Shown: in pieces, positions 16,123 through 30,071 of the stretch
Numbering within the stretch: position 1 is the first letter of the stretch
Layout of the letters: the number at the start of each line of letters is the position of its first letter
Source: an uncultured Candidatus Saccharibacteria bacterium
Lineage (GTDB): Bacteria; Patescibacteriota; Saccharimonadia; CAILAD01; GCA-016700035
Assembly (NCBI GenBank): GCA_964583675.1
Contig: CAZOVH010000003.1
Span: forward strand, 12,167-76,166
Direction of reading: 5' to 3'
Length of the DNA: 64,000 nt
The notes under the pieces: generated by a model
Told to the model about the DNA's origin: nothing
Seen by the model: the letters and a program-made list of their open reading frames with translations, nothing else
The model's database searches: none
Position numbers and translations under genes: made by a program

Positions 16123-17376
16123 ATGACAAAGCTTGTAATTACCGGTCCAACCCGTTTGCAAGGCGAATGGTTTACAGCGGGCTCAAAAAACGCCGTACTA
16201 CCAATGCTGGCTGCCTGCCTCTTAACGAAAGAAAAAGTCACAGTCGAAAATGTGCCGCGCATTTCAGACGTTGATGTAATGCTAGAAATTTTAGCTTCAC
16301 TTGGGGCGAAGGTCTGGCGCGAAGGCCATACTGTTACTGTTGAGGCAGACAATCTAACCACCGCCACTATTCCCGATGAACTCACAGCAAAAATGCGCGC
16401 TTCTGTACTTATTTTAGGAGCAGCAGTTGGCCGACTCGGTAGCATTACAGCAGCTCAACCCGGTGGCGACATCATTGGCGCGCGCCCACTAGCCTCACAC
16501 CTCAAAGCTTTTCAGGCGATGGGGCTATCAGTTATTCGTGAGCAAGGCCACATTACGGTATCCGGCAAACCCCAGGGCGGACGCGTGGTACTTGGTGAGC
16601 TCACTGTAACCGGCGCCGAAAATGCAATTATGGCCGCTGTACTTGCTACTGGCGTAACCGAGCTACGTATGGTTGCCCTGGAGCCTCATGTAGTCGATCT
16701 CTGTCTCATGCTGCAACAAATGGGCGCTAAAATTGAGGGCATTGGCACCCACAACCTCATCATTCATGGCGTCGAAACACTCAATGGTACGCTTTTCCGA
16801 GTGCCACCAGATCAACTAGAAAGCGGCACAATTGCGATTGCGGCGGCGGCCTCACGTGGCGATGTGATTATTCATGATTTTATTCGCGATGAACACGATG
16901 TGCTCCTCACCCTATTTGATCAAATCGGCGTGCAATATCAGTTGCCAAACCCCAAAACAATCCATATCCTCCCCGGTGGTGACTATCAGGCAGTAAATGT
17001 GCGTACTCAGCCTTATCCAAACTTCCCGAGTGATTTGCAGGCACCCTTGGCCGTTCTACTGACGCAGTGCGCCGGCACCTCCGAAATTTTTGAAACTCTC
17101 TATGAAGGCCGCTTGCAATACCTCTTTGAGCTGCAGCGTATGGGCGCAGCCGTAGCTATCCGCGACACCCACACCGGACTCATCACTGGTCCAACACCAC
17201 TAGCCGGGGCGGATCTCGTTAGTTTTGATATTCGCGCCGGAGCCACCATCCTCATCGCCGCGCTCATCGCGCAAGGTAAAACGATGATTGACCGCATCGA
17301 ACACATCGACCGCGGCTATGAACGGATTGAAGAGCGGCTCCAGGCTCTCGGCGCCCAACTCCAGCGCATTAACTAA
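16123..17376 (+). CDS. murA: UDP-N-acetylglucosamine 1-carboxyvinyltransferase
   Basis: MTKLVITGPTRLQGEWFTAGSKNAVLPMLAA... is a full-length MurA fold. The true ATG is at 16123, inside the longer listed ORF. Confidence 0.9.
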   Translation: MTKLVITGPTRLQGEWFTAGSKNAVLPMLAACLLTKEKVTVENVPRISDVDVMLEILASLGAKVWREGHTVTVEADNLTTATIPDELTAKMRASVLILGAAVGRLGSITAAQPGGDIIGARPLASHLKAFQAMGLSVIREQGHITVSGKPQGGRVVLGELTVTGAENAIMAAVLATGVTELRMVALEPHVVDLCLMLQQMGAKIEGIGTHNLIIHGVETLNGTLFRVPPDQLESGTIAIAAAASRGDVIIHDFIRDEHDVLLTLFDQIGVQYQLPNPKTIHILPGGDYQAVNVRTQPYPNFPSDLQAPLAVLLTQCAGTSEIFETLYEGRLQYLFELQRMGAAVAIRDTHTGLITGPTPLAGADLVSFDIRAGATILIAALIAQGKTMIDRIEHIDRGYERIEERLQALGAQLQRIN

Positions 17377-18467
17377 TTTTTCTGTTCGTCTGATAAATTA
17401 TGCGTCAAATAGGCTTCGATAAATGGCTCAATCGCGCCACCTAGCACCGCATCCGTATCGCTAGTTTCATAATCTGTACGATGATCTTTTACTTTCTTGT
17501 AGGGGTGCAATACATAGCTACGAATTTGCTGGCCCCAGTCGGCTGACTGAACTTTTCCACGAAGCTCAGCCACAGAATCTAGATGCTGTTCGCGTGCCAA
17601 CTCAGCGAGCTTTGCCACTAAAATTGACATCGCCTTATTTTTATTCTTGAGCTGTGAGCGTTCATTTTGGATTGAAACCACAATACCAGTTGGAATGTGA
17701 GTAATACGCACCGCCGAATCAGTCGTATTTACGCTCTGGCCACCATGCCCACCAGCGCGAAATACATCAATGCGCAAATCTTTTTCATCAAGTTCTATCT
17801 GCTCCATCGGGATTTCAGGAATTACATCAACCAACGCAAAACTGGTTTGGCGCAAACTATCACTATTAAAGGGCGAGAGCCTCACCAAACGATGGACACC
17901 CTTTTCACTTTTCAGCTTGCCAAACGCAAAAGGCCCTTCAATTTCCAGTGTGGCAGATTTTATACCTGCTTCTTCTCCTCGCGAAATATCAACTAATTTA
18001 GCTGTTAGCTCAAGCTTTTCTGCAGCCTTGGTATACATAGTCAGCAGCATTTCCGCCCAATCTTGTGCGTCTGTACCGCCAGCTCCTGCCGAAACCTGTA
18101 CAATTGCCGTGTTCTTATCATAATCTCCGGCCAGCTTTACCGTTATCATCATCTGGCGTACCGACTCTTCCATGCTAGCCGTAGACTCCTCCATCGCATC
18201 CAATAACGACTCATCCGACATCTGCGCGAGCTCAAGCATAGTCTGTATCGACTCCTCCATTGTTTGCCAGCTCTCAATAAATTTACGTAGTAATGCAGCC
18301 TCTTGGCTGACCTTTTGGGCTTCCCCTTGATCAGACCAAAAATCAGGTGCATTCATGCGAGCTTCTAGCTCGGCAAGCACCTTTTCTTCACTCTCTAGAT
18401 TAAGCTGACGGATTGCGCCCTGCACTTCTTCTAGGAGGTTTGTCAGTCGGTCAATAATTGGCTTCAT
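17373..18467 (-). CDS. prfB: Peptide chain release factor 2; no programmed +1 frameshift site seen
   Basis: SPF tripeptide (RLSPFNSDS) and the GGQ motif. The ORF is continuous from Met through the region where the frameshift normally sits. Confidence 0.9.
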   Translation of the reverse strand: MKPIIDRLTNLLEEVQGAIRQLNLESEEKVLAELEARMNAPDFWSDQGEAQKVSQEAALLRKFIESWQTMEESIQTMLELAQMSDESLLDAMEESTASMEESVRQMMITVKLAGDYDKNTAIVQVSAGAGGTDAQDWAEMLLTMYTKAAEKLELTAKLVDISRGEEAGIKSATLEIEGPFAFGKLKSEKGVHRLVRLSPFNSDSLRQTSFALVDVIPEIPMEQIELDEKDLRIDVFRAGGHGGQSVNTTDSAVRITHIPTGIVVSIQNERSQLKNKNKAMSILVAKLAELAREQHLDSVAELRGKVQSADWGQQIRSYVLHPYKKVKDHRTDYETSDTDAVLGGAIEPFIEAYLTHNLSDEQKN

Positions 18468-18506
18468 ATCGGTAGTATTATACCTGTTTCTGGTTCTATA
18501 TAAACC

Positions 18507-18542
18507 AAAACTCCCCGTCAGTGAAAATTCACTTCGAGGGAG
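18507..18542 (-). terminator. Terminator hairpin downstream of the LPXTG-protein gene
   Basis: On the minus strand the sequence reads CTCCCTCGaagtgaattttcactgaCGGGGAGtttt. Confidence 0.5.
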
Positions 18543-18571
18543 CTTGGCGTATACCTACAAACTGTAGGGTG

Positions 18572-19762
18572 TTACTTTACAACGTTTTTCAACGCAGCGC
18601 TCAAACCTTTGCGGCTCTTTCGGTAGAAATAACCAGCGTAGGTGAGACCACCGGTTCCCAACAGACCAGCAACACCAGTCTCGATACCAGTCTGAGGCAG
18701 GGTTGGCTGCTCAGGAGTTACCGGGGTGGTAGGGGTTGGGGTTGGAGATACTGGAGGTGTGGTTGGGGTAGGCGTTGGCTTACCGGCAACTGCAACCTTG
18801 GTAACTGCATAGTTTTCACGCATGATGTTACCAGCTTTTACGCCAGCAACGTTCTTCATGGTGTATGTACCAGGCTTGAGATTTGGATCAATCTTAGCTT
18901 GGAACCATACATAACCAACAGAACCTGGGGCATAACTACCTACGTTGATTCCGCCACTTGTGACTTTATCTGAGGTAATCTTGATGCCGTTTGGATTGTT
19001 CATGTTTTTAAGCTGAGTAGTACCGTTTACGTAGGTTACAGAAGCTGGCATGTTGTCAGCAATTGCAAGATCCTTCAAAACAGTATTTCCTTCGTTCTTA
19101 AAGGTGATGAGGTATTCAAGTGTGTCACCAGCTTTCGCAGTGTTTTCACTCTTCCACTCTTTTTCACCAAGAACACGAACTTGTTTGGTTATAGAAACCA
19201 TGTCGGTCTTAACACGCAATTTTACAGATACGCTAGCTTCAAAGTTGAAGCATGGCTTACCATTTTCGAGCACTACACCTGTAGTCAAAAGCTGTTGCTC
19301 CTGAGCTGCAGTAAGTGTGTCAGTTACCCAGTTAGGCTGCTCGTTGGTGCCCTTGTTGTGGCGCCAAACTGCAGTTCCTGGAACATACTCGAGACGGCTG
19401 TTATCAAGTGCAAGATTTGCTGTTGCGCTTGTGTTAACCGTGTTGGCATTGTCTGCAGAGATTGTACCGTTGATTTTCTGGGTTTTTCCAGCTGCGGTTG
19501 GCAGCTGAAGTTTTGCTTTTACATTATTGGCTACTTTGCCGCTATCGGCATTTTCCATGTTGTGGTACCAAAGCTGAACTTGAACGGTTTCGTCAGTTTT
19601 TGCGTTGGTACTCGGCTTGTACGTATTCTCACCAGCACTCGCGTTAGCAACACCAAGTTTTGATTCAAGGCGCACCTGGCTCGTGGCATGAGCTGCCAAT
19701 GGCAGAAGGCTGAGCAATGCAGCGAAAGCTACATAGCGCAACTTAGAAAGCACAGTCATCAT
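18572..19762 (-). CDS. LPXTG cell-wall-anchored surface protein (sortase substrate)
   Basis: Signal peptide MMTVLSKLRYVAFAALLSLLPLAAHA, a Thr/Pro-rich stalk and a C-terminal LPQTG motif followed by a hydrophobic segment and an RKSRKG tail. A GGAG RBS lies before the MMTV start. Confidence 0.8.
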   Translation of the reverse strand: MMTVLSKLRYVAFAALLSLLPLAAHATSQVRLESKLGVANASAGENTYKPSTNAKTDETVQVQLWYHNMENADSGKVANNVKAKLQLPTAAGKTQKINGTISADNANTVNTSATANLALDNSRLEYVPGTAVWRHNKGTNEQPNWVTDTLTAAQEQQLLTTGVVLENGKPCFNFEASVSVKLRVKTDMVSITKQVRVLGEKEWKSENTAKAGDTLEYLITFKNEGNTVLKDLAIADNMPASVTYVNGTTQLKNMNNPNGIKITSDKVTSGGINVGSYAPGSVGYVWFQAKIDPNLKPGTYTMKNVAGVKAGNIMRENYAVTKVAVAGKPTPTPTTPPVSPTPTPTTPVTPEQPTLPQTGIETGVAGLLGTGGLTYAGYFYRKSRKGLSAALKNVVK

Positions 19763-19995
19763 ATGAGACTCCTTTCTTTCGCGACGTGAAGTCGGAAAGC
19801 GCTTATGGTTATTTAACATTTATGCGTGTGGTCAATCTCTGTAATAATTGCAGTGTGTATGCTGTAGTTGTAAAGGTTTATTGTTCGCGTAGGTGAACAA
19901 TTACCTATAAATATTATCATACTTAAGCTTTTTTGTCAATACTTTTTGTCAGCTAAATATGTCAGTGTCAACAGATTTGACTCAATAAAAGTGAA

Positions 19996-20022
19996 GGAGC
20001 GGACGCATGTAGCGTCCGCTCC
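19996..20022 (-). terminator. Perfect 11-bp stem, 5-nt loop hairpin at the 3' end of the high-GC block (terminator for the island transcription unit)
   Basis: GGAGCGGACGCatgtaGCGTCCGCTCC. On the minus strand it is followed by a T-rich tract. It lies about 35 nt downstream of the stop of the 20058-21143 gene. Confidence 0.6.
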
Positions 20023-20057
20023 TGATGAACCTGAACACCCTTCTAGGGACTACCGGG

Positions 20058-21143
20058 CTAGGCCGGCGCCCCAGGGTCTCCGGGCTCGTTGACCGGCTGA
20101 GGCGTGGCCTCGGTCGGTTCCGGATCGTCGAAGCCGGTGTTGCCACCGGTCTCGCCATTGGTGTCGCCGGGGCTCATGTTGCCGCCCGGCGGGATGATCA
20201 CTCCGTCAGCCGGATCGGCTGCCGAGTCCTCGGCGTTCCCCGGGACGTAGTCCGGAGTGGGCGGGAGTGGCTCGGTGTCCACGTGGGAAGGATGGTTGTT
20301 ACCACCCGAACCACAGACACCGTCCGCCATCAGCTCCGCCGTGCACTTCCACGTCGTGGTGGGAGCCTCGGGCGTGGTCACGGGCGTGACGGGCTGTCCG
20401 GGCTTGCCTGGCGTCACGGGCGTGACGGGCTGTCCGGGCTTGCCTGGCGTCACCGGCCGCGAGGGCTGGTTTGGCGCAGGCGGAGCACCCTTGCCGGGCA
20501 CGCTCGGCGGGAAGTTCTGCTCGACGGGCTGGTACCCGCAGTTGAGCTTGAACTGCTTCACGGTCCCGTCCGGGAACGTGAAGCGGATCACCTTGAACGG
20601 CGCGGCTTCGACCGGGACCTGGTAGATCTCGGGGATGATTCTCCCCTTGTCCTCCATGTCCATGGTCTGGTACGCACCGCTCATCTCGACGATCTCCACC
20701 TTGACGGCCTCGTTGAGGCGCGCTTGGAAGCGCATCTCGCTGAGAGCCCAGGCATCGGGGTTCGACATGAGGTCGACCGTCTTCTGGACTCGAGTCGGCG
20801 CATCCGAGAACTCGTTGAAGAGGTACTCGGAGTCACCCACGAGGAGCGCGGCGTCAGAGCAGCGTCGCGAGGCGAAGTCCGCCTGCGTTGCTGCCACATT
20901 GGCCGGATCCTCCGGAGCGGCGGGGCCGAACTGGTTCCCGCTCGTCTCGCGAGCGAAGAACATCTGGTTGACGCCGCACGTACCAGCCGGAGCCGGAATG
21001 GTCGTGGTGGTCGGGTCGTCGTCGGCACCCACGTCGATGATCGTCCTGCTCGCCCCGAAGGTGAGCAGTGCGAGGAGCAGCAGCCCGGCACCGAAGTACC
21101 AGAACGACTGCTGCCGCTTGGCAGGTGTGTCCATGAAGGCCAT
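20058..21143 (-). CDS. Island gene 3: single-TM, Pro/Gly-rich secreted or membrane-anchored protein with a tandem PGKPGQPVTPVT repeat
   Basis: 361 aa. N-terminal TM (FWYFGAGLLLLALLTFGA), strong GC3 bias and coding on the same strand as its neighbours. Confidence 0.6.
   Translation of the reverse strand: MAFMDTPAKRQQSFWYFGAGLLLLALLTFGASRTIIDVGADDDPTTTTIPAPAGTCGVNQMFFARETSGNQFGPAAPEDPANVAATQADFASRRCSDAALLVGDSEYLFNEFSDAPTRVQKTVDLMSNPDAWALSEMRFQARLNEAVKVEIVEMSGAYQTMDMEDKGRIIPEIYQVPVEAAPFKVIRFTFPDGTVKQFKLNCGYQPVEQNFPPSVPGKGAPPAPNQPSRPVTPGKPGQPVTPVTPGKPGQPVTPVTTPEAPTTTWKCTAELMADGVCGSGGNNHPSHVDTEPLPPTPDYVPGNAEDSAADPADGVIIPPGGNMSPGDTNGETGGNTGFDDPEPTEATPQPVNEPGDPGAPA
20377..20448. repeat. Perfect 36-bp tandem duplication (2 copies plus a partial third) inside island gene 3
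   Basis: gtcacgggcgtgacgggctgtccgggcttgcctggc occurs at 20377-20412 and again at 20413-20448. It encodes a repeated PGKPGQPVTPVT unit. Confidence 0.9.
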
Positions 21144-21298
21144 GAGGCCCCCTTTCGTTTGAGCGCTTTTAGCGCGGGATGTTCAGGTTCTGGTTCTGAC
21201 TTCAAGCATTCATCTCTGTTTTACCAAAGGTTCACGTTCAAGGCCAGAATAAAACCAAAAGTGTGTCCCCTGGAGCCCGAAGGCCCCAGGGGGAGGGG

Positions 21299-22102
21299 TC
21301 AGTTCGTCGACGCACTGGCTGCGGCTGCAGCCTGCACGGTCTGGAACTGGGTCCCCGTGGGAGGCGGAGGCGGGATGACCGCATCCGGAGTCAACACGAC
21401 CGGCTGCGGCGGTACTGCCACCTGAGCCGGAGTCGGAGCTGCGGGTGCCGGAGCGGGCGGCTGTGCGGGGATGGTGTTCACTCCCGCCGCTGCTCCCGCA
21501 TGCACCTGCGTGACGCCGTGGAAGGCGCCGCCACCGACCAAGCCGGCGACGATGCCGGCGACGATGAGGCCTGCCGCACCGGACAGGACCAGGTCCCTCC
21601 AGAGCGGGAAGTTTCCCAGAGCTTCCAGGAACAACCACGCGATGAAGAAGGCTCCGATGCCTGCCACGATGGGCTGCCACCAACCACTGCTGAGACGATG
21701 CTGCAGCTGTGTGATCGCAGTGGCGTGAGCTTCCGAGTGGGCCTGCAGCCCGTCGACGCGGCTGCCCAGACCGAGAACGTTGTTCTCGACGGTGCCGACG
21801 CGACCGGTCAGGTTGTCCAGATCTTGACGAACGTCGCTGAGCCGCTGCAGGATGTCCTGTCGCTCGTTGCCGCGCTCGGCGATCTGGTTCTCCAGGCGCT
21901 CGATCTCCGTTCGGACGATCTCGCGCATGGCCTCACTGGCCGCTTGGGTCAGCTCGGCGTTGCGCTCGGTGATGAGCCCGTTCAGGCGCTGTAGCTCCTG
22001 GTCGACCCCTCCGAGTCGACGCGTGAGGGTGTCGTGCTCGGCACGGTGTTGCTGCGCGAGCAGCACCTCTGTGTGTGTGGTTCGTTCGGTTCGGTTTGCC
22101 AT
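21299..22102 (-). CDS. Island gene 2: coiled-coil protein with two C-proximal TM helices and a Pro-rich tail
   Basis: 267 aa. Heptad-rich N-terminal half, TM segments (WWQPIVAGIGAFFIAWLFL and LIVAGIVAGLVGGG), then a PAQPPAPAPAAPTPAQ tail. High GC3. Confidence 0.55.
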   Translation of the reverse strand: MANRTERTTHTEVLLAQQHRAEHDTLTRRLGGVDQELQRLNGLITERNAELTQAASEAMREIVRTEIERLENQIAERGNERQDILQRLSDVRQDLDNLTGRVGTVENNVLGLGSRVDGLQAHSEAHATAITQLQHRLSSGWWQPIVAGIGAFFIAWLFLEALGNFPLWRDLVLSGAAGLIVAGIVAGLVGGGAFHGVTQVHAGAAAGVNTIPAQPPAPAPAAPTPAQVAVPPQPVVLTPDAVIPPPPPTGTQFQTVQAAAAASASTN

Positions 22103-22288
22103 GTCCCCTCCCGGGGTGTGTTGTGCCGGGGTTTTTCAACACCCGGGTTGAGGTACGAATACCGTTGCATAATAGCATAAAATACATAATTTTGCAATAG
22201 TTTTATGCAAAGTCAATATGCTTATGCCAAAGATAATTGACAAAAAAAATTGGGCGACCTGGTGTTACCCAGGTCGCCCAGTGTGAAA

Positions 22289-23920
22289 TCAGGCAGCGCT
22301 CTGCCGTCCAGACTCCACAAGAATGCGCCTCTCCGCCTCGGCACGAACCGCATCTGCCGAGCGGAATGCCCAACACTGCTCAGGATCAAGATCCTCAATC
22401 ACTGCCTTGACGGCAGCCTCGAAAACCTCATCCGGCAGTTCGACCAAGAAGGACTCGTCCGACTTCCGCTTACGGCGACTCGCGTCACGATCAGCACCGT
22501 CAGCTGGTCCATCCGTCTGAGGCTGCTGAGCGTCCGGCTCTTCGGCTGAATCGCTGGACTGCCGCCCCGCAGCTGGCGCCTTCGGAGCTGGCCGCATCGC
22601 AACCCTGCCTCCCCCCTGCACCACATGGCGCTGAGGCTCGGGAGCATCACTGCTGCTGACGGTACGACGACCCTCACTCATCCGGACAACAGGGACCGGC
22701 TGAGTGGGGGGACCCCCTTCGGGTTCCTTCGGGGCACCACTGTTTGCGGCACCCGTCACAGACTCGGAAGGGGGTGTGTCGTCCGTCGAGCTGCTCGCCG
22801 GCTCCTCGGATGCGGGTCGAGGCGGCGGAACCGCACCAGACCGTACGAATGCAGACCTGCGAGCAGAGCGGCGCTGAGCCCTCTCGTAGCCGTCACGCAG
22901 GAAGACCTCGTTGGGCCAGGTGAAGTCTTCCAACTCCTTCTGGACCGAGGTAGTCCCTTCGGCAACCCGAGCCGCACTGCGCACGGCCTGGCGATTGAAC
23001 CAAGCCTTTGCAGCGAGGTTCTGACCCTCCCCCCTCAGCTCAGCCTGGGCATCCTGCTCGAGTTCTTCTCGAGTCAACGATTCTGGCCGGCCCTGACCCT
23101 CTTCCTTCTTGAGCTGGAAGAGGTAGCGCTCGATTTCGAGTTCATCCTCGATGCCGAGTTCCTCGTAGAGCGACCAACCGTACTGATAGATGGCAATGGC
23201 AAGCTCACCGAGAGCCTTTTCGGCCGCCTCCTTGTTGCCGCGAAGACGAGCATCGGCAGCCACCTGAAGGTACGGTCGCAGTGGCTCGCGATAGGAGTCG
23301 AGTTGAGGCTCGCCATCCGCAAGCGGTGCCGGTGCGTCCGCAGTGGCTTCGGGCTCCGGAGACGGAGGCGTCTCACCGCTGTCCGCCGGATCGCTGTCAG
23401 GTGCCGAAGCACTCGGGGCGTCCTGATCGAAGGGCTGCAGGGCAGCACCATCGGCTGCAGCCGGCTGGGCCGGCTGTTCACCAATGAATCGGTCGACGGC
23501 GGAGGCAAGCGTGTTCGAGACGAACTGGTTGCCGTTGCGAATGGCCTGCCTCTCCTCGCCCTCTTCGAGATCCTCGTTGAGGATCTCCTCCAAGAGCTCG
23601 AGAGCTGACGCCTCATCCAGCAACGGATCGGTCTCCATCAACCTTTCGGTCAGATGGGAAGCACGAAGCTGAATCCTACGAGGCGCAGGAGGTGTGGCTT
23701 CAGCCGCCTCATCGGCGGTGCCATCAGCGGGGTCTGTGAGGTGTTCTTCGTCGGCCATGACGGCCTCCTGTTCTCCGGCTGTGCCGGGGTTGGGGCCATC
23801 TTCGGCCGGGGTTGCGCCACCACACAGGGCGGCAACTTCATCGGGATTGAGCTGGGAGAATTCATCCATGCTCATTCCGGACCTGCCTTCACTCATGCTG
23901 TACCTCATCTGCTGTGTCAA
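22289..23920 (-). CDS. Island gene 1: large acidic Pro/Ala-rich protein, function unknown
   Basis: 543-aa ORF from a TTG at 23920. The more likely start is the ATG at 23896 (MSEGRS) with a GAGGT RBS 5 nt upstream. High GC3. Upstream lies an AT-rich promoter-like island (23921-24001). Confidence 0.55.
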   Translation of the reverse strand: MTQQMRYSMSEGRSGMSMDEFSQLNPDEVAALCGGATPAEDGPNPGTAGEQEAVMADEEHLTDPADGTADEAAEATPPAPRRIQLRASHLTERLMETDPLLDEASALELLEEILNEDLEEGEERQAIRNGNQFVSNTLASAVDRFIGEQPAQPAAADGAALQPFDQDAPSASAPDSDPADSGETPPSPEPEATADAPAPLADGEPQLDSYREPLRPYLQVAADARLRGNKEAAEKALGELAIAIYQYGWSLYEELGIEDELEIERYLFQLKKEEGQGRPESLTREELEQDAQAELRGEGQNLAAKAWFNRQAVRSAARVAEGTTSVQKELEDFTWPNEVFLRDGYERAQRRSARRSAFVRSGAVPPPRPASEEPASSSTDDTPPSESVTGAANSGAPKEPEGGPPTQPVPVVRMSEGRRTVSSSDAPEPQRHVVQGGGRVAMRPAPKAPAAGRQSSDSAEEPDAQQPQTDGPADGADRDASRRKRKSDESFLVELPDEVFEAAVKAVIEDLDPEQCWAFRSADAVRAEAERRILVESGRQSAA

Positions 23921-24001
23921 TTTCGGAATAAATTGTCAGGTGCAAAAAACACAAAAACCATACCACAAATTTGCAATATGGTCAATGTTTATTGGTTGCG
24001 C

Positions 24002-24340
24002 TTAGTGTTGGCTGGCGGCTTCTTCACGCACTTTTGCGAGCACAGCCTGCTGATCGGCGACGAGCTGATCTCCAACTTCTTGAGCAGTAGATGCAATCAA
24101 CTCATCATAGTTCGGCACAAGCTGTCGCAAGCGATCATCAACCTGATCGCCGCCAGCATCGATCAGCCGTTCTAGCTCATTCATCTGCTCTTCAGTAATC
24201 TGATCGGAAACTTTACTGAGTACACGGGTCATCGTAAGGTCAGCAAGTTGCTCGGCAAGTTGCTGCTTTTGTTCGTCAGTGGCTGAAGCCATGCCGAGTC
24301 TGGTGAAAATATCTGGTTGATTAGGTTGTGTAGTATCCAT
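24002..24340 (-). CDS. Small acidic helical protein (112 aa), function unknown
   Basis: Native GC. It sits between the large two-TM protein gene and the high-GC block, on the same strand. Confidence 0.5.
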   Translation of the reverse strand: MDTTQPNQPDIFTRLGMASATDEQKQQLAEQLADLTMTRVLSKVSDQITEEQMNELERLIDAGGDQVDDRLRQLVPNYDELIASTAQEVGDQLVADQQAVLAKVREEAASQH

Positions 24341-24365
24341 AGGTTACTCCTTATAAGTTATCTAG

Positions 24366-27300
24366 CTATGCTGCGCCATTTAAGCCATCTGTAGGCATGC
24401 CGTAAAGTTGAAGAATCTTTTCTGTCGGAACACCACGCTGAACCTGCTGAGCAATATTGCGCGTAAGTTGCACCATCTGGTCATTGCCAACATCAACCGA
24501 ACCGCGGCCAAGTATGAAGTTCAGCCTATCTAGTTCTGCATTCGACAAATCAAGTCCACGTAATGCGCTACCATAATTCCTGTCGTATGCTTGGTTACCA
24601 GCCTCATACATGGCTTTCTCAGCTGGGCTCAATCCTTGATACTTATCAGTCATATGTTCCCAATTCTGTGCGGCATTTTTATCAGTACTGAGTATACCTT
24701 TAAAGCGAGCCTCATCGGGGCTATATGGCTTTGGCGCTTCAGGACCCTTCGGCGGGCCACTGAAGAAGTGACGGAGAACAAATGGTGCTGCTGCAGCGGC
24801 CACACCAACTACTGCTGCCCCTCGCTTTGCACGCCTGTTCGACTTCGCATCACTATTTACACGATCTAGCTGATTCTTAAGAAGTAAATCTGCCACTGCC
24901 GCCGATGATTCTGGGTTTCCAGCTAGTGCTCCTCGCAGCACTCGATCGCTATACAGGGCACCGGCATTAGCCTCTAGGAATGCTGCAATCTCTTGCTCGG
25001 TCATTTTTTCAGCGCCAAGCCCCTCTGTGTTCCCTGAAATATATTCCATGTCACGCCCCGCCTCTAGCTGCGTACTAGCAGACTGTGCGCCCCAGGCTTC
25101 GGTGCGACCACGCAAATCAGCCTTATTGGCTCGACGATTATGCAGCATATTAACGCCGGCTTCAGTCGCCATAAATCCACCAGTACCACGCATAACTGCA
25201 CCAGCACCTGCAACCATCGCGCTACCTACGCCGGCACCGACACCAGTCATCGCAATCGCCGCGCCAGCTATTCCAAGAGCTGCACCAACCGCTAACCTGG
25301 TTCGACGACCATTCTTAGAGCGCCAGAAAGTGCGGAACTTTTCAGATTTTGTACCAACTTTTAGTTCACATTGTGCAGCTTCAACCTTTGAGCGAGTCTG
25401 CGCCATCTCAACAATCATCTCAACCTCAACCCGACGGGTCACTTCCTCGACACCTTGACGCAAGTTCTCTAACTGCTCATCACACTTCTGCATAGCCTCA
25501 CGCGCCTCTAAAATGCGCTCTTTGCGCCGATCAATCCGAGACTGACGAAGTGTAGGTGGCAACTGCGTATCTGCTTCCAGGCGAGCAATCGATTCATCTA
25601 GTACAGTAACTTTCTCCTGCATATCGGTCTTGTAGTCATTAATTCCAGCTTCAACCCCGCGATAATCTGCCAATACAGCCGCCCAGTTGTCTGTATATTG
25701 GGCGTAAGCAGACTCAAGGCTCGCGTTCGCTTGCTCGAGGGCGGTCTGATCACGCTTTGTTCGACCAAAGAATTTTTCCCGCTGCTCTTTTGCCTGCGCC
25801 ACGGCCTGTATCTGAGCATCAACGTTTAAGCGCGCGCCTTCGGCCAGTGCCAAAATCTCTTCGGCTGACGGTATTTTTGGCACTTTCTCTAAATAGCTAC
25901 CTTTTTCATATGGCTCGCCACCCTCTTGATCGATCGGGTCGTCTTCGTCCTCTGGAGAATTGCCTCCACCTTCGCCATCATTCTGCAGTTTTTCAATACG
26001 CGAGATACTGTCTTCATCGATCGCAAACTCTGTGCCACTCTCCAAATTCAAAAGTCGTAAACGAGCTGGGTTCTCGCCAACTTTTTGGATAATCATATGC
26101 GGAGCTTTATCGCCATCCGCTTCTGTATAAGTGACCATTTCACCATTTTTAAACGTGACACCACCAATTTCGAATTGGTGGTCGTTTTCAATAGATTCAC
26201 GACGTTCTACTCGAGTCATCGGCTGAAGTTGAGCTTCGCCAGATTGTGCAGGACTTGGGGAAGGCGCCTGGTCAAAATTTGTTCGCGTAGCGGGCGCTGG
26301 CTCTGCCTGGTCAGCACGAGGCTGACTACCACTCGCTTCAGTAGCAAGCGGGCTTGCTGGAGCACCGTAATACGCTTCTGTATCATTCTCGGCAAGTATT
26401 TGCTTTAAATCATCACCAAGTTCATGACCAAATTTGTCATTTATTGCTTGATCGCCTATTTGTTCTGGCTGTGCTGGCATTGTGCCACTCCTGCTTTGTT
26501 CGTCCTGCCTATCATAACCGGTTTGATTCTCTGCTGGCAAGTCGGCTCGTTGAGTTTCTCGATTCCATTCATCTGGCGGCAAACTACGCTCATACTCTTC
26601 ATTTGTGTCGTAATCGTTACTGTCAAAATAGCGAGCCCCTCGAATACGTCGCGAATCTTCAGCTTGCCTGGTATGCTTTTTTTGGCGTGCAGTACCCTGA
26701 GACTGCTGCTTAGCAGTCTGTTTTTCAGGCTTATCGCTTGATGTGTCCTTGATACTTCCATCTGAGTTATAACGATCATAAAATTCTGACCAAATTGCTT
26801 TGGTTACTGGTCGCATCCCAGTTTTCACTTCATGCGCCAACCCATCCAATAAAATATCGGCCGGCTTCTTGGCGCCACCCAATGAATCGCCATGCCGACG
26901 ATTAACACGTGTCTGCACTCCGTCCCAGCCTTTAATTTTGCGCAGCTCTCTCTTTATCTCATTCGAGGGTCGCCTAGCATATCTGTAAGGGTCATTCGTG
27001 CTTGAGCGCTCCGGACCACTCGTTTGAGGACCGTCATTAATGAGCACCGGATTGTCAAGTTTGGTGGTGAAATTCTCCATAGCTTGCTGAATTTCAATGC
27101 GCTCATTCTGCAGGGATGCAAGATAACTCGAGACACGTTCCGATTCCTCAGAATTACCCGATTCGCCTAGCGAGGCCAACCTGCTCTCGGCTTGAGCAAT
27201 TTCTCGCTCTACTTGCGGCAATTGTGCTGCCACATCTCCGAATGTAGGCGCGCGACGTGCATCCGCAGGGGTCGACTCCACTTCGGCGTCATCAGCGTGC

Positions 27301-27410
27301 ACCTGCGATAACTCACTAGCCAACTCAGCACCTCGAGACTCCGAACCTCCAAACTGATCTGGGTCTAACTCGTCAAAGCCACGCATAACGTCATGTGATG
27401 TATTACTCAT
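24366..27410 (-). CDS. Large (1014 aa) coiled-coil protein with a central Gly-zipper two-TM hairpin, function unknown
   Basis: Long acidic low-complexity N-terminal half and extended coiled coils. A TM pair (LAVGAALGIAGAAIAMTGVGAGVGSAMVAGAGAV) follows, then a C-terminal region with a further hydrophobic stretch (AAVVGVAAAAAPFVL). Native codon usage. Confidence 0.65.
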   Translation of the reverse strand: MSNTSHDVMRGFDELDPDQFGGSESRGAELASELSQVHADDAEVESTPADARRAPTFGDVAAQLPQVEREIAQAESRLASLGESGNSEESERVSSYLASLQNERIEIQQAMENFTTKLDNPVLINDGPQTSGPERSSTNDPYRYARRPSNEIKRELRKIKGWDGVQTRVNRRHGDSLGGAKKPADILLDGLAHEVKTGMRPVTKAIWSEFYDRYNSDGSIKDTSSDKPEKQTAKQQSQGTARQKKHTRQAEDSRRIRGARYFDSNDYDTNEEYERSLPPDEWNRETQRADLPAENQTGYDRQDEQSRSGTMPAQPEQIGDQAINDKFGHELGDDLKQILAENDTEAYYGAPASPLATEASGSQPRADQAEPAPATRTNFDQAPSPSPAQSGEAQLQPMTRVERRESIENDHQFEIGGVTFKNGEMVTYTEADGDKAPHMIIQKVGENPARLRLLNLESGTEFAIDEDSISRIEKLQNDGEGGGNSPEDEDDPIDQEGGEPYEKGSYLEKVPKIPSAEEILALAEGARLNVDAQIQAVAQAKEQREKFFGRTKRDQTALEQANASLESAYAQYTDNWAAVLADYRGVEAGINDYKTDMQEKVTVLDESIARLEADTQLPPTLRQSRIDRRKERILEAREAMQKCDEQLENLRQGVEEVTRRVEVEMIVEMAQTRSKVEAAQCELKVGTKSEKFRTFWRSKNGRRTRLAVGAALGIAGAAIAMTGVGAGVGSAMVAGAGAVMRGTGGFMATEAGVNMLHNRRANKADLRGRTEAWGAQSASTQLEAGRDMEYISGNTEGLGAEKMTEQEIAAFLEANAGALYSDRVLRGALAGNPESSAAVADLLLKNQLDRVNSDAKSNRRAKRGAAVVGVAAAAAPFVLRHFFSGPPKGPEAPKPYSPDEARFKGILSTDKNAAQNWEHMTDKYQGLSPAEKAMYEAGNQAYDRNYGSALRGLDLSNAELDRLNFILGRGSVDVGNDQMVQLTRNIAQQVQRGVPTEKILQLYGMPTDGLNGAA

Positions 27411-27424
27411 TGCTCTTATGATAA

Positions 27425-27455
27425 CAAAAAAGCCCCGATATGAGGGGCTTTTTGA
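27425..27455. terminator. Bidirectional rho-independent terminator between the large unknown gene and secA
   Basis: The sequence aaaaaAGCCCCgatatgaGGGGCTtttt. Confidence 0.7.
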
Positions 27456-27458
27456 AGA

Positions 27459-30071
27459 TTAGCGACGCTTCTTCTTCTTTTTTGATTTTTTCTTTGGAGC
27501 TGTAGCGGTTCGACGAATGGGGCCAGACTCTCGACCAGAACGTTCAGATTCCTTCAGGGCTTTTTGCCTTGTCGGCTGAGCGGATTCAGCAGATCCCGAG
27601 GTAACTGCTTTTTTCGCCGCCTGCGTAATTTCCGTCTCAATCGCTTCGTCTTCGGGCTTATTGGTGATATCTACTCGAACCTTAAACAGCGTATGAACAA
27701 TCTCAGAATCAATCCGATGAGTCAGCATACCGAACATACGGTAAGCCTCAGCTTTATATTCAACCAACGGATCACGCTGTCCGTAACCACGCAGGCCAAT
27801 ACCATCACGCAAATGATCCATCGCCTCCAGATGTTCGAGCCAAGCAGTATCGATGGTCTTGAGACTTACGAGACGTTCAATTACCATCACACCTTCGTCA
27901 CCAAACTCCATCTCGCGAGAACGGTACATGTCTTTAGTGATTTTCATAAATTCTGCAACTAGCGCTTCTTTGTCCCGTCGTTCGACAGACTTTTCCCAAT
28001 CTTTTGGTAAAGGAATAATATCTCGAACAGCCTCGGCCAATTTCTCGATATCCAGAATTTCTGTCTGCGTATCGGTATGTACTTCAATCAGCGCATGAAA
28101 CTCGGACTCAAAAATCGGCAGCAGGTCTTCCTTGAGAGAATCTTGTTTTAAAACCCGGCGGCGACGAGCATAAATTATCTCGCGGTGCTGGTTCATCACG
28201 TCATCGTAATCAACTAAGTGCTTACGAGTATCAAAGTTATGACCCTCCACTTTTTTCTGGGCCGATTCTAGTGAGCGGGATACCATGCGATTCTCAATTG
28301 GAGTATCTTCTGGAAGTCCCAGTGCATCCATCATCGACGAGAGCTTATCGCTTCCAAAGATACGCATGAGATCATCTTCAAGTGATACATAAAATTGACT
28401 CGAACCTGCATCACCCTGACGCCCGGCGCGACCACGCAACTGATTATCAATCCGTCGCGATTCATGCCGCTCAGTACCGATTACGTGCAGTCCACCAAGC
28501 TCGTTCACCCCTTCGCCGAGTACAATGTCGGTACCGCGGCCGGCAATGTTGGTGGCCAATGTTACCGCTCCTCGTTGTCCGGCAGCAGACACAATTTCCG
28601 CCTCAGCTTCATTATTTTTAGCATTCAGCACCCGATGGGGCACGCCAACTTTGGTAAGCATGCGACTAAGTAGTTCGTTCTTTTCGATTGAAACAGTGCC
28701 CAAAAGAACCGGTTGGCCCTTTTCATGGCGTTCTTTCACCTCATCGGCCACAGCGCTAAACTTAGCCGGCAGCGTCTTATAAATTCTATCCGGCAAATCC
28801 TGTCGTACCATCGGTCTGTGGGTAGGAATAGTAGTCACTTCGAGCTTGTAGATTTTGCCAAATTCTTCGGCTTCAGTCGCCGCCGTACCCGTCATACCGG
28901 CTAGCTTGTTGTACAGGCGGAAAAGATTCTGGAAAGAGATAGTCGCCAGGGTTTGGCTTTCCTGCTGGATAGTTACACCTTCTTTAGCTTCGATGGCCTG
29001 ATGCAGCCCTTCGCTATAACGACGCCCAGGCAGCAAACGACCCGTAAACTCATCGACAATTACAATTTCGCCATCTGGAGTGACGACATAATCCTTGTCT
29101 TTTTGGAAGATAGCTTCGGCTTTAAGGGCGGACTCAATGTGATGAACGTCTTCAATACGGCCCGCCTCATACACATTATCAACGCCCAAAGCCTTTTCGA
29201 TTTTAGCAATACCCTCATCTGTCAGGCTTACTGCACGTTGCTTTTCGTCTAGCGAGTAATGTTCGTCACGGATAAGAGTTTTAGCGATTTTGGCGAACAT
29301 ATAGTAGCGGTCTGTAGATTTTGCATTGGCTTGCGAGATAATCAGTGGGGTTCGAGCCTCATCGATTAAAATTGAGTCAACTTCGTCCACAATCGCAAAG
29401 TGCAATCCACGCTGTGACATCTGATCGAGATGCTGCACCATATTATCGCGTAGATAGTCGAAGCCAAGCTCATTATTTGTAGCGTAAGTAATATCTGCCG
29501 CGTAAGCCTCTTTGCGAGTCACGGGACGCAAATGGCGGAGGCGTTCATCAGAATGATTCTCGTCGGTATACTCAGGGTCATACACAAAACTTGAATCATG
29601 CATAATCACTGCTGTCGTGAGACCAAGAAAATGATAGATTTGACCCATCCAACCGGCACCAATCCGGGCCAAATAATCGTTAACAGTGACAAGATGAGCA
29701 CCTTCACCCTCAAGAGCGTTCAAATAAAGGGGCAGGGTAGCAACCAGGGTTTTACCTTCACCAGTCTTCATTTCGGCAATCTTGCCTTCGTGCAATACGA
29801 TGCCACCAATCAACTGCACGTCAAAGTGACGCTGCCCAATAACACGCTTACTGGCTTCACGCGCCACAGCAAAGGCTTGCTCTAAAATATCATCAAGCTT
29901 TTTCCCATCCTTGAGTTGCTTACGAAACGTATCGGTTTGAGCACGCAATTCTTTATCGGAGAGCTTCTGAATTTTCGCTTCTAATGAATTTATTCGCTCC
30001 ACACGAGAACGCGCCTTTTTAATTTCGCGCGCGTTGGGATCGCCAAAGAGTGTTTTTAAATTAATCGCCAT
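27459..30071 (-). CDS. secA: Preprotein translocase ATPase SecA
   Basis: 870 aa. [11 protein letters not shown]...[14 protein letters not shown] (Walker A of the DEAD motor), with NBD, PPXD and helical scaffold and a basic C-terminal tail. Confidence 0.95.

Follow-up and report, generated by a model that had tools for sequence, protein, structure and literature searches.

An orphan family of large, predicted membrane-anchored proteins with an exchangeable C-terminal domain, paired with DUF5663 proteins in one subclade of Saccharimonadia

The window analysed here is a stretch of 64,000 nucleotides from an uncultured Candidatus Saccharibacteria bacterium (contig CAZOVH010000003.1 of assembly GCA_964583675.1, positions 12,167 to 76,166 of the forward strand), and our analysis concerns a pair of genes on its minus strand. 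The first gene (24366..27410, stop codon included) encodes a large protein of 1014 amino acids and the second (24002..24340) encodes a small, acidic, helical partner of 112 amino acids, which is a member of the Pfam family DUF5663 (PF18908). Both open reading frames (ORFs) described in the initial annotation are present in the ORF listing, and both are genuine genes because full-length homologues of 930-1033 amino acids exist at 96% to 43% identity, together with a further tier at 28-37%. The gap between the two genes is only 25 nt long, carries the AAGGAG ribosome-binding site of the 112-aa gene (24347..24352, minus strand, located by inspection of the sequence) and contains no stable hairpin, and the pair is kept in every relative examined. 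The proposed linkage of the two genes is therefore well founded, and the pair probably forms one unit, coupled in translation and probably also in transcription. Upstream of the large gene lies secA (27459..30071) and downstream of the pair lie three high-GC genes. The best matches of the SecA protein, at 61-74% identity, belong to metagenome-assembled genomes of Candidatus Saccharimonadia, which places the source genome in the Saccharibacteria (TM7). An LPQTG-anchored surface protein with DUF11 and a lysyl-tRNA synthetase of class I are also encoded in the window.

A word-indexed search of 5.8 billion proteins with the large protein returned 9 clusters at 96% to 43% identity, all of about 1000 amino acids in length and all without a name, and an exhaustive phmmer search of 1.84 billion representatives returned 19 proteins at E <= 0.001. 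A second tier of relatives (900-1066 amino acids, 28-37% identity) has its C-terminal half in common with the large protein, and the remote proteins P0024 (1666 amino acids), P0025, P0026 and P0027 share with it the hydrophobic hairpin module alone. Within Saccharimonadia the family is confined to a single subclade, and in the other Saccharibacteria examined the position downstream of secA lacks it. No significant match to the large protein was found in Pfam, NCBIfam, PHROGs or PADLOC, the PADLOC defence models giving zero matches for the 1014-aa protein and weak noise for the other four proteins. Pfam and profile scans of each member of the alignments of the core, the C-terminal domain (the tip) and the N-terminal domain (N-domain) yielded nothing consistent. 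PDB searches with the full-length, core, tip, N-domain and DUF5663 profiles gave a sole lead, the Hemolysin BL component L1 (Hbl-L1), which was rejected by hhalign, and the conserved modules (N-domain, core and tip) are without a PDB or Pfam relative. A word-indexed search with the core alignment was empty, probably because it was swamped by low-complexity Gly/Ala words; a scan of the GTDB genomes with the protein's own patterns gave zero matches, and the Southlakia transposon sequencing (Tn-seq) study contains nothing mappable to this family. On these searches the large protein founds an orphan family, and what is new is the family and not any demonstrated mechanism. The initial annotation had seen no recognisable family at this locus, which is correct for the large protein in Pfam, NCBIfam, PHROGs, PADLOC and PDB but not for its partner, PF18908. 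Profile searches of the HHpred type gave no significant family and structure prediction with AlphaFold2 (AF2) gave a domain layout, in which, as reported at the outset, no catalytic motif is visible.

The architecture of the large protein was drawn from two AF2 models, hydropathy and the alignments A1 and A3. The full-length model has a mean predicted local distance difference test (pLDDT) score of 55, and the model of residues 501-1014, generated from a diverse alignment of 14 sequences, has a mean pLDDT of 73 and a predicted template modelling (pTM) score of 0.52. All segments described here are encoded on the minus strand. The protein begins with an acidic, disordered N-terminus (residues 1-56, 27243..27410; pLDDT <50 for residues 1-53) with a net charge of -11 over its first 50 residues, and the N-terminal half as a whole has an isoelectric point (pI) of 4.6, in agreement with the acidic N-terminal region seen initially. 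Two helices (H57-84 and H87-116 in the AF2 model; residues 57-116, 27063..27242; most blocks with pLDDT 79-90) are followed by a helical domain of about 75 amino acids (residues 138-215, 26766..26999; pLDDT ~58-83 per 10-residue block), which was delineated by jackhmmer and alignment A8. This domain has an invariant L, G and W, is kept family-wide including the distant tier, and gave zero matches in PDB or Pfam. The disordered linker behind it (residues 216-407, 26190..26765, with disorder over about 213-409; pLDDT mostly <50) carries the short conserved motifs YFD..D.D, GYD and NDTEAYYGAPxSP, which appear as invariant columns in alignment A1. It leads to a small Tudor/SH3-like beta-barrel (residues 408-475, 25986..26189; AF2 strands E412-474), for which Foldseek returned Tudor, Spindlin and PWWP domains with a probability of 0.98-0.99 and a root mean square deviation (rmsd) of 2.3-2.8 Å over ~55 residues. 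The same barrel is duplicated in neighbour proteins of ~1430-1560 amino acids of related genomes, as seen by BLAST with the giant proteins of genomes L001 and L092.

Three long helices of ~32, 62 and 67 residues (residues 516-685, 25356..25865; pLDDT 81-95 in the second AF2 model) come next and are strongly conserved in alignments A1 and A3. The segment that follows (residues 690-740, 25191..25343), assigned by hydropathy and invariance, consists of a basic, amphipathic juxtamembrane stretch (KFRTFWRSKNGRRTR, residues 690-705, net charge +7) and a hydrophobic Gly/Ala hairpin (residues 706-740), which is nearly invariant among the close relatives of alignment A1 and after which an MRGTGG motif is found; the Gly-rich hairpin of the initial annotation is thereby confirmed. 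A helical domain predicted to be cytoplasmic (residues 741-863, 24822..25190; pLDDT 69-85 in the second model) ends in SDAKSNRRAKRG, and the second hydrophobic stretch towards the C-terminus, also recognised earlier from the sequence, is a single transmembrane (TM) helix by hydropathy (residues 864-884, 24759..24821) which its flank charges predict to run from inside to outside. A proline-rich spacer (residues 885-896, 24723..24758; alignment A1) connects this helix to the tip (residues 897-1014, 24369..24722; pLDDT 71-89), an all-helical domain of ~110 amino acids with five to six helices in the AF2 model, which is predicted to be external. The description of the protein as containing hundreds of residues of coiled coil holds in part, as long helices are present at about 57-116 and 516-685, but the region of about 213-409 is predicted to be disordered and the beta-barrel at 408-475 had been missed. 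The extent of the coiled coil was overstated, heptad periodicity being clear in one helix only.

The mean net charge among 14 family members is +5.6 before the hairpin and +1.8 after it, and +3.0 before the second TM segment (TM2) and +0.4 after it. Because of this charge distribution, the positive-inside rule predicts an N-in/C-out topology, in which the first ~700 residues and the 741-863 domain would be cytoplasmic and the spacer and the tip would face outward. In most members the hairpin is 29 amino acids long and has GGP at its centre; in the window's subclade its length is 35 amino acids. Since 29 amino acids with a central GGP are too short for two full membrane spans, the hairpin is predicted to be re-entrant. 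The early suggestion of a large envelope-spanning protein thus agrees with a membrane protein which, on its predicted topology, very probably spans the envelope.

Comparison of the family members revealed that the tip behaves differently from the rest of the protein. At least three tip types can be distinguished, namely A (window, P0001, P0002 and P0005-7), B (P0003 and P0009) and C (P0004 and P0008), with identities of 63-100% within a type and 20-37% between types, and P0013 and P0025 carry yet other C-termini. The types are homologous versions of one helical fold, for which the tip profile A7 gave zero Pfam or PDB matches, with no toxin-domain match and no catalytic motif. The protein of the window is 89% identical to P0003 in the core and 32% in the tip, and 90% identical to P0004 in the core and 22% in the tip, whereas P0004 and P0008 are 44% identical in the N-terminal half and 90% in the tip. 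When the DNA of the window was compared with the genomes encoding P0003 and P0004 (L095 and L096, respectively), the housekeeping flanks were mostly 85-90% identical, and identity fell to 40-53% only over about 24370-24810 before it returned to 86-95% (L095) or 81-87% (L096) across the DUF5663 gene. As judged from the drop in nucleotide identity, the left edge of the divergent cassette lies within the proline-rich spacer. Because the tip types clash with the relatedness of the rest of the protein and the DNA identity drops sharply, the tip is, by sequence comparison, a cassette that is exchanged between strains by homologous recombination. Such swapping is the behaviour that would be expected of a part exposed to pressure from the host, phages or competitors.

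The 112-aa partner scores 24.3 bits against PF18908, above the Pfam gathering threshold of 23.7. Its orthologues are annotated as PF18908 in all relatives, and 40 family members were found. With a pI of 4.16 it fits its first description as small, acidic and helical, and it belongs to a Pfam family without known function. DUF5663 retains 83-88% identity in relatives with only 43-61% in the large protein, and its identity is independent of the tip type. This lack of co-variation with the tip argues against an immunity role and in favour of a predicted binding to an invariant part of the large protein. DUF5663 genes are also located near other large proteins. P0024, the distant hairpin-module protein from another Candidate Phyla Radiation (CPR) genome and an unrelated context (A3 profile, E = 1.7e-14), has a DUF5663 gene two genes upstream, and in other Saccharimonadia a DUF5663 paralogue and then a ~1550-aa protein occupy the slot downstream of secA. 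This ~1550-aa protein has only Tudor-like domains in common with the large-protein family, and both pairs are present in tandem in L001. The 81-aa gene adjoining P0026 is not DUF5663, and a scan of the JGI metagenomes with DUF5663 patterns gave zero matches, the pattern being too degenerate. In the literature searched we found no mention of DUF5663 and no description of its recurrent pairing with large hairpin membrane proteins.

Two further observations concern DUF5663. The proteins in the alternative slot form a second giant family of 1429-1560 amino acids that combines an acidic N-terminus with two Tudor-like barrels and with hydrophobic segments, and they are always located after a DUF5663 paralogue in the same position behind secA (L001 13452-18107; L091 8001-13053; L092 8001-13050). 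The tip profile matched the DUF5663 ORF (24369-24722 against 24002-24340) with E = 5e-4 within the ORF set of the window, and an 'L..L..I.G' helix-turn pattern is present in both; homology between the two was rejected at an hhalign probability of 13.7%.

The gene pair is part of a conserved cluster, whose downstream portion (18572..23920, minus strand) was defined by synteny and BLAST orthology. It comprises, all on the minus strand, gene A (543 aa, 22289-23920), gene B (267 aa, 21299-22102; with a coiled coil, a pair of TM segments and a tail rich in Pro), gene C (361 aa, 20058-21143; with a TM segment at the N-terminus, a conserved domain containing Cys and a tail rich in Pro and Thr) and the gene of the LPQTG/DUF11 surface protein (LPXTG/CLIPPER by Pfam and NCBIfam matches, 18572-19819). 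The order secA, large protein, DUF5663, A, B, C, LPXTG/CLIPPER protein and prfB is kept in genomes whose large protein is 80% (L095), 74% (L096), 61% (L004), ~35% (L086) and ~29% (L087/L088) identical to that of the window, and also in L093 (28% over the aligned part). In L001 (43%) the order is secA, large protein, DUF5663, a second DUF5663, a 1429-aa protein and gene A, at which the contig ends. Orthologues of gene C are present in L004, L086, L087, L093 and L094, while genes A and B were confirmed in fewer lineages. A distant relative in L089 has no secA nearby, the adjacency to secA being specific to the window's lineage. The genes mreB-mreC-mreD-pbp2 lie upstream of the large gene, and ftsE/ftsX are found beyond prfB in relatives.

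In the window, the three high-GC genes have a GC content of 63-67% and a GC content at third codon positions (GC3) of 0.65-0.85, with neighbours at 46-50% GC. In the three relatives measured (L004, L086 and L087), genes B and C have 63-70% GC and a GC3 of 0.68-0.87 in genomes of 46-53% GC; the block lies at 20058-23920 in the window, 13546-17194 in L004, 13439-17521 in L086 and 13732-16627 in L087. Since synteny is kept down to ~30% identity and the relatives measured are high in GC as well, the block is old and clade-wide and not a recent import; the initial term "foreign block" does not suit a block common to the whole clade. The orthologues share 49-64% protein identity for gene C and 24-45% for gene B, and because synonymous sites should have equilibrated at such divergence, the persistent high GC indicates either selection in favour of a high GC content or recurrent replacement from a GC-rich donor, for example a host actinobacterium. 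A donor search with gene C among phages and plasmids gave zero matches, a gene C scan of the JGI metagenomes returned only one already known locus, and no tRNA or mobile-element gene flanks the block.

Some additional features of the cluster were observed. L096 is 91-98% identical to the window over 18489-20287, covering the LPXTG gene and the end of gene C, which is above the mostly 85-90% of the housekeeping flanks, whereas the same LPXTG gene is mostly 55-72% identical in L095. By these contrasting identities, the entire cluster from secA to prfB is a mosaic and a hot spot of recombination. Gene B resembles the plan of the large protein in miniature: its product starts with a coiled coil, has a hydrophobic hairpin of two segments and ends in a Pro-rich tail, and its database matches are coiled-coil noise only, including faint ones to NheC and xenorhabdolysin-A. 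Spurious ORFs of up to 466 amino acids lie opposite the high-GC genes (20025-21425, 22625-23608 and 21263-21994, plus strand), and in L096 gene C was seemingly called on the wrong strand by the automatic gene caller. A programmed +1 frameshift is common in prfB (release factor 2) among bacteria; here prfB (17373-18467, minus strand) is a single uninterrupted ORF of 364 amino acids, apparently without such a frameshift.

Directly 3' of DUF5663 a terminator-like hairpin of 12 bp with a U-run is present (23956..23983, minus strand; free energy -16.2 kcal/mol, z = -2.3), the sequence of which is conserved in L004 and L086 and overlaps a promoter-like TTGACC-17-TATGGT. A second hairpin with a 10-bp stem and a U-run lies between secA and the large gene (27427..27453, minus strand; -15.2 kcal/mol, z = -2.3) and is present in the window genome and L086 but not in all relatives. 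A terminator-like hairpin is also found after each high-GC gene, and with the one after DUF5663 these suggest that the cluster probably consists of several transcription units. The proposal that the five genes form one locus therefore stands for a syntenic, conserved cluster (of six genes with the LPXTG gene), whose order is kept in relatives down to ~30% identity, but not for a single operon. The motif TATCATAAG (TAGCATAAG in L087) is located 5-6 nt upstream of the ATG of the large gene (27411-27428) in the window, L004, L001, L086 and L087. It could be a -10 box, and because only ~15 nt lie between the secA hairpin and the start codon, the transcript would be near-leaderless.

Taken together, these features lead us to propose, tentatively, that the large protein is an envelope-spanning scaffold or adaptor with a variable surface domain, which together with its DUF5663 partner would serve surface organisation or host attachment. 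The pair would encode a lineage-restricted integral membrane scaffold and a small, acidic, cytoplasmic partner. The cytoplasmic ~700 residues, comprising the disordered motifs, the helical domain, the barrel and the three helices, would recruit partners. The Gly/Ala hairpin would dip into the membrane from the cytoplasmic face, followed by one true transmembrane helix, and the proline-rich spacer would carry the ~110-aa helical domain to the cell surface. In this way an external binding domain may be coupled to cytoplasmic partners (DUF5663 and possibly others), with a role in surface organisation or in attachment to the actinobacterial host within a Saccharimonadia-specific secA-prfB surface/envelope cluster. 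The surface-gene context, namely the LPXTG/DUF11 protein, two membrane proteins with Pro-rich tails and the mosaic identity, suggests such a scaffold.

Several points weigh against this proposal. We infer the function from architecture and context only, for a large protein without a characterised homologue, and we likewise infer the interaction between DUF5663 and the large protein from sequence. The topology is based on the positive-inside rule and not on a dedicated predictor, the hairpin region has a pLDDT <50 in both AF2 models, and in the window's subclade, with its 35-aa hairpin, two passes through the membrane are conceivable. Terminator-like hairpins point to transcription of the pair separately from the rest of the cluster, and an argument from gene neighbourhood loses weight accordingly. 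Finally, with mreBCD-pbp2 nearby, the gene context would fit a role in morphogenesis equally well.

The last point leads to an alternative that we consider unlikely but worth keeping in view, in which the large protein would be a cytoplasmic-membrane scaffold for shape, division or polarity, similar to RodZ, FimV/HubP or EzrA, with its external domain contacting the cell's own wall. A cytoplasmic domain, a TM helix, a Pro-rich linker and an external domain make up the RodZ-type plan, and an acidic disordered hub is FimV/HubP-like. The large protein resembles these proteins in its large cytoplasmic N-terminal part, anchor, Pro-rich spacer and small external C-terminal domain, and FimV/HubP also in its acidic disordered region with short conserved motifs. 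The strong conservation of the cytoplasmic core and the position of the large gene downstream of mreB-mreC-mreD-pbp2, with ftsE/ftsX beyond prfB in relatives, fit this alternative as well. However, the large protein has no sequence or fold similarity to RodZ or FimV/HubP, no match to RodZ (HTH, DUF4115), FimV (LysM, TPR) or EzrA was found in Pfam or NCBIfam, and the re-entrant hairpin, the Tudor-like barrel and the swapped external domain are additions of the large protein. Exchange of the tip cassette between close strains would be unusual for a housekeeping wall-binding domain, and the limitation of the family to one Saccharimonadia subclade, with its absence behind secA in other Saccharibacteria, also speaks against such a role. 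A pore-forming or translocon-like protein of the ClyA/Hbl/Nhe type, in which the helices would shield the hairpin until it is inserted into a host membrane and DUF5663 would act as chaperone, is less probable still and on balance doubtful. The best PDB match of the A3 profile was Hemolysin BL L1 (7nmq_A, E = 0.003), whose hydrophobic head hairpin pairs with that of the family behind a conserved Trp, and the large protein has in common with this toxin family the long helices, the Trp, a Gly/Ala-rich hairpin of ~30-50 residues and more helices after it, three long helices preceding the hairpin. A parasitic lifestyle would make an attack on the host membrane useful, and the chaperones of hydrophobic translocators are typically such small, acidic, helical partners. 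Yet the match to Hbl-L1 has an hhalign probability of 11.5% and is confined to the Gly/Ala-rich stretch, no other ClyA-family chain appeared in the PDB profile search at E up to 10, Pfam Bacillus_HBL/HlyE gave zero matches in 14 members, and Foldseek returned MakA and AhlC at noise level only. The large protein further differs from the toxins in its extra TM anchor, its 500-residue N-terminal extension and, by inspection, the lack of an N-terminal signal-like hydrophobic segment, and its second TM helix, strongly basic on the inner flank, has the appearance of an anchor resident in the membrane. Homology to ClyA/Hbl is therefore unsupported, with no family-wide signal and no significant Foldseek match, although a functional analogy with these toxins is possible.

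The sharp recombination boundary at the linker, the presence of at least three divergent C-termini on near-identical bodies and the small gene directly downstream recall the polymorphic toxins of the contact-dependent inhibition (CDI), Rhs and LXG type, in which a conserved body carries an exchangeable C-terminal effector followed by an immunity gene; in the large protein the recombining domain of ~110 residues is bounded just as sharply. An immunity gene would be expected to follow the tip, but DUF5663 is invariant across the cassette types, the DNA being 86-95% identical with the type B genome L095 and 81-87% with the type C genome L096 while the tips are 22-32% identical at the protein level. 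Moreover, the tip types share one helical fold, in which neither a catalytic motif nor a match to a toxin domain was found, and the body is an integral membrane protein with no secretion or delivery domain. We consider this explanation very improbable, and the pair was rejected as a toxin-immunity system because DUF5663 fails to co-vary with the tip and a toxin domain is lacking. The initial comparison with tape-measure proteins, or with a prophage remnant, is hardly credible. Tape-measure proteins typically combine long helices with a hydrophobic hairpin rich in Gly, and like those of siphophages the large protein is very long, mostly helical and carries such a hairpin internally; tape-measure proteins were also the top matches in the BFVD viral library searched with Foldseek (E = 2e-4 and 3e-3). 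These matches, however, have TM-scores of 0.06-0.2 and an rmsd of ~40 Å, PHROGs gave only E > 0.1 and no tape-measure family, Pfam gave none, tblastn against 50,697 phage records gave zero matches and IMG/VR zero relatives. In contrast to a tape-measure gene, the large gene resides in a stable chromosomal locus without a tail-gene neighbourhood, flanked by secA and DUF5663 in all relatives examined, with a secA-prfB position conserved down to ~30% identity and no phage genes, tRNA or integrase nearby. The identity as a tape-measure protein was therefore rejected.

An extension of the proposed surface scaffold can be imagined, in which the pair would form the membrane base of a host-contact apparatus of Saccharimonadia, the cassette would set host or receptor specificity, the hairpin would build or gate a conduit, and the neighbouring genes would be kept host-like in GC by exchange with host DNA. 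We regard this as decidedly improbable. A polar 'lance' or tube of ~9 nm x 61-70 nm has been described in Mycosynbacter amalyticus by cryo-electron tomography (PMC11880426), and a link of the large-protein locus to this tube is speculative and of low probability. The Pam pilus operon of M. amalyticus, which was also considered, is a different locus that adjoins the ATP synthase genes.

For Saccharibacteria and the rest of the CPR, which live attached to other bacteria as hosts, the proteins that underlie this way of life mostly lack annotation. The recurrent pairing of DUF5663 with large hairpin-anchored membrane proteins across CPR lineages would be a first functional association for this family. 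The cluster between secA and prfB appears as an inserted, recombining island of surface genes and poses a compositional puzzle, as neighbouring genes keep a high GC3 despite the divergence of their proteins. Because the sole fast-swapping part of the large protein is its predicted surface tip, the tip presents itself as a candidate determinant of specificity or antigenicity. If it does not bind the host envelope, the large protein would be an ordinary lineage-specific membrane protein; if it does, the tip would offer a genetic marker for host range in uncultured Saccharimonadia.

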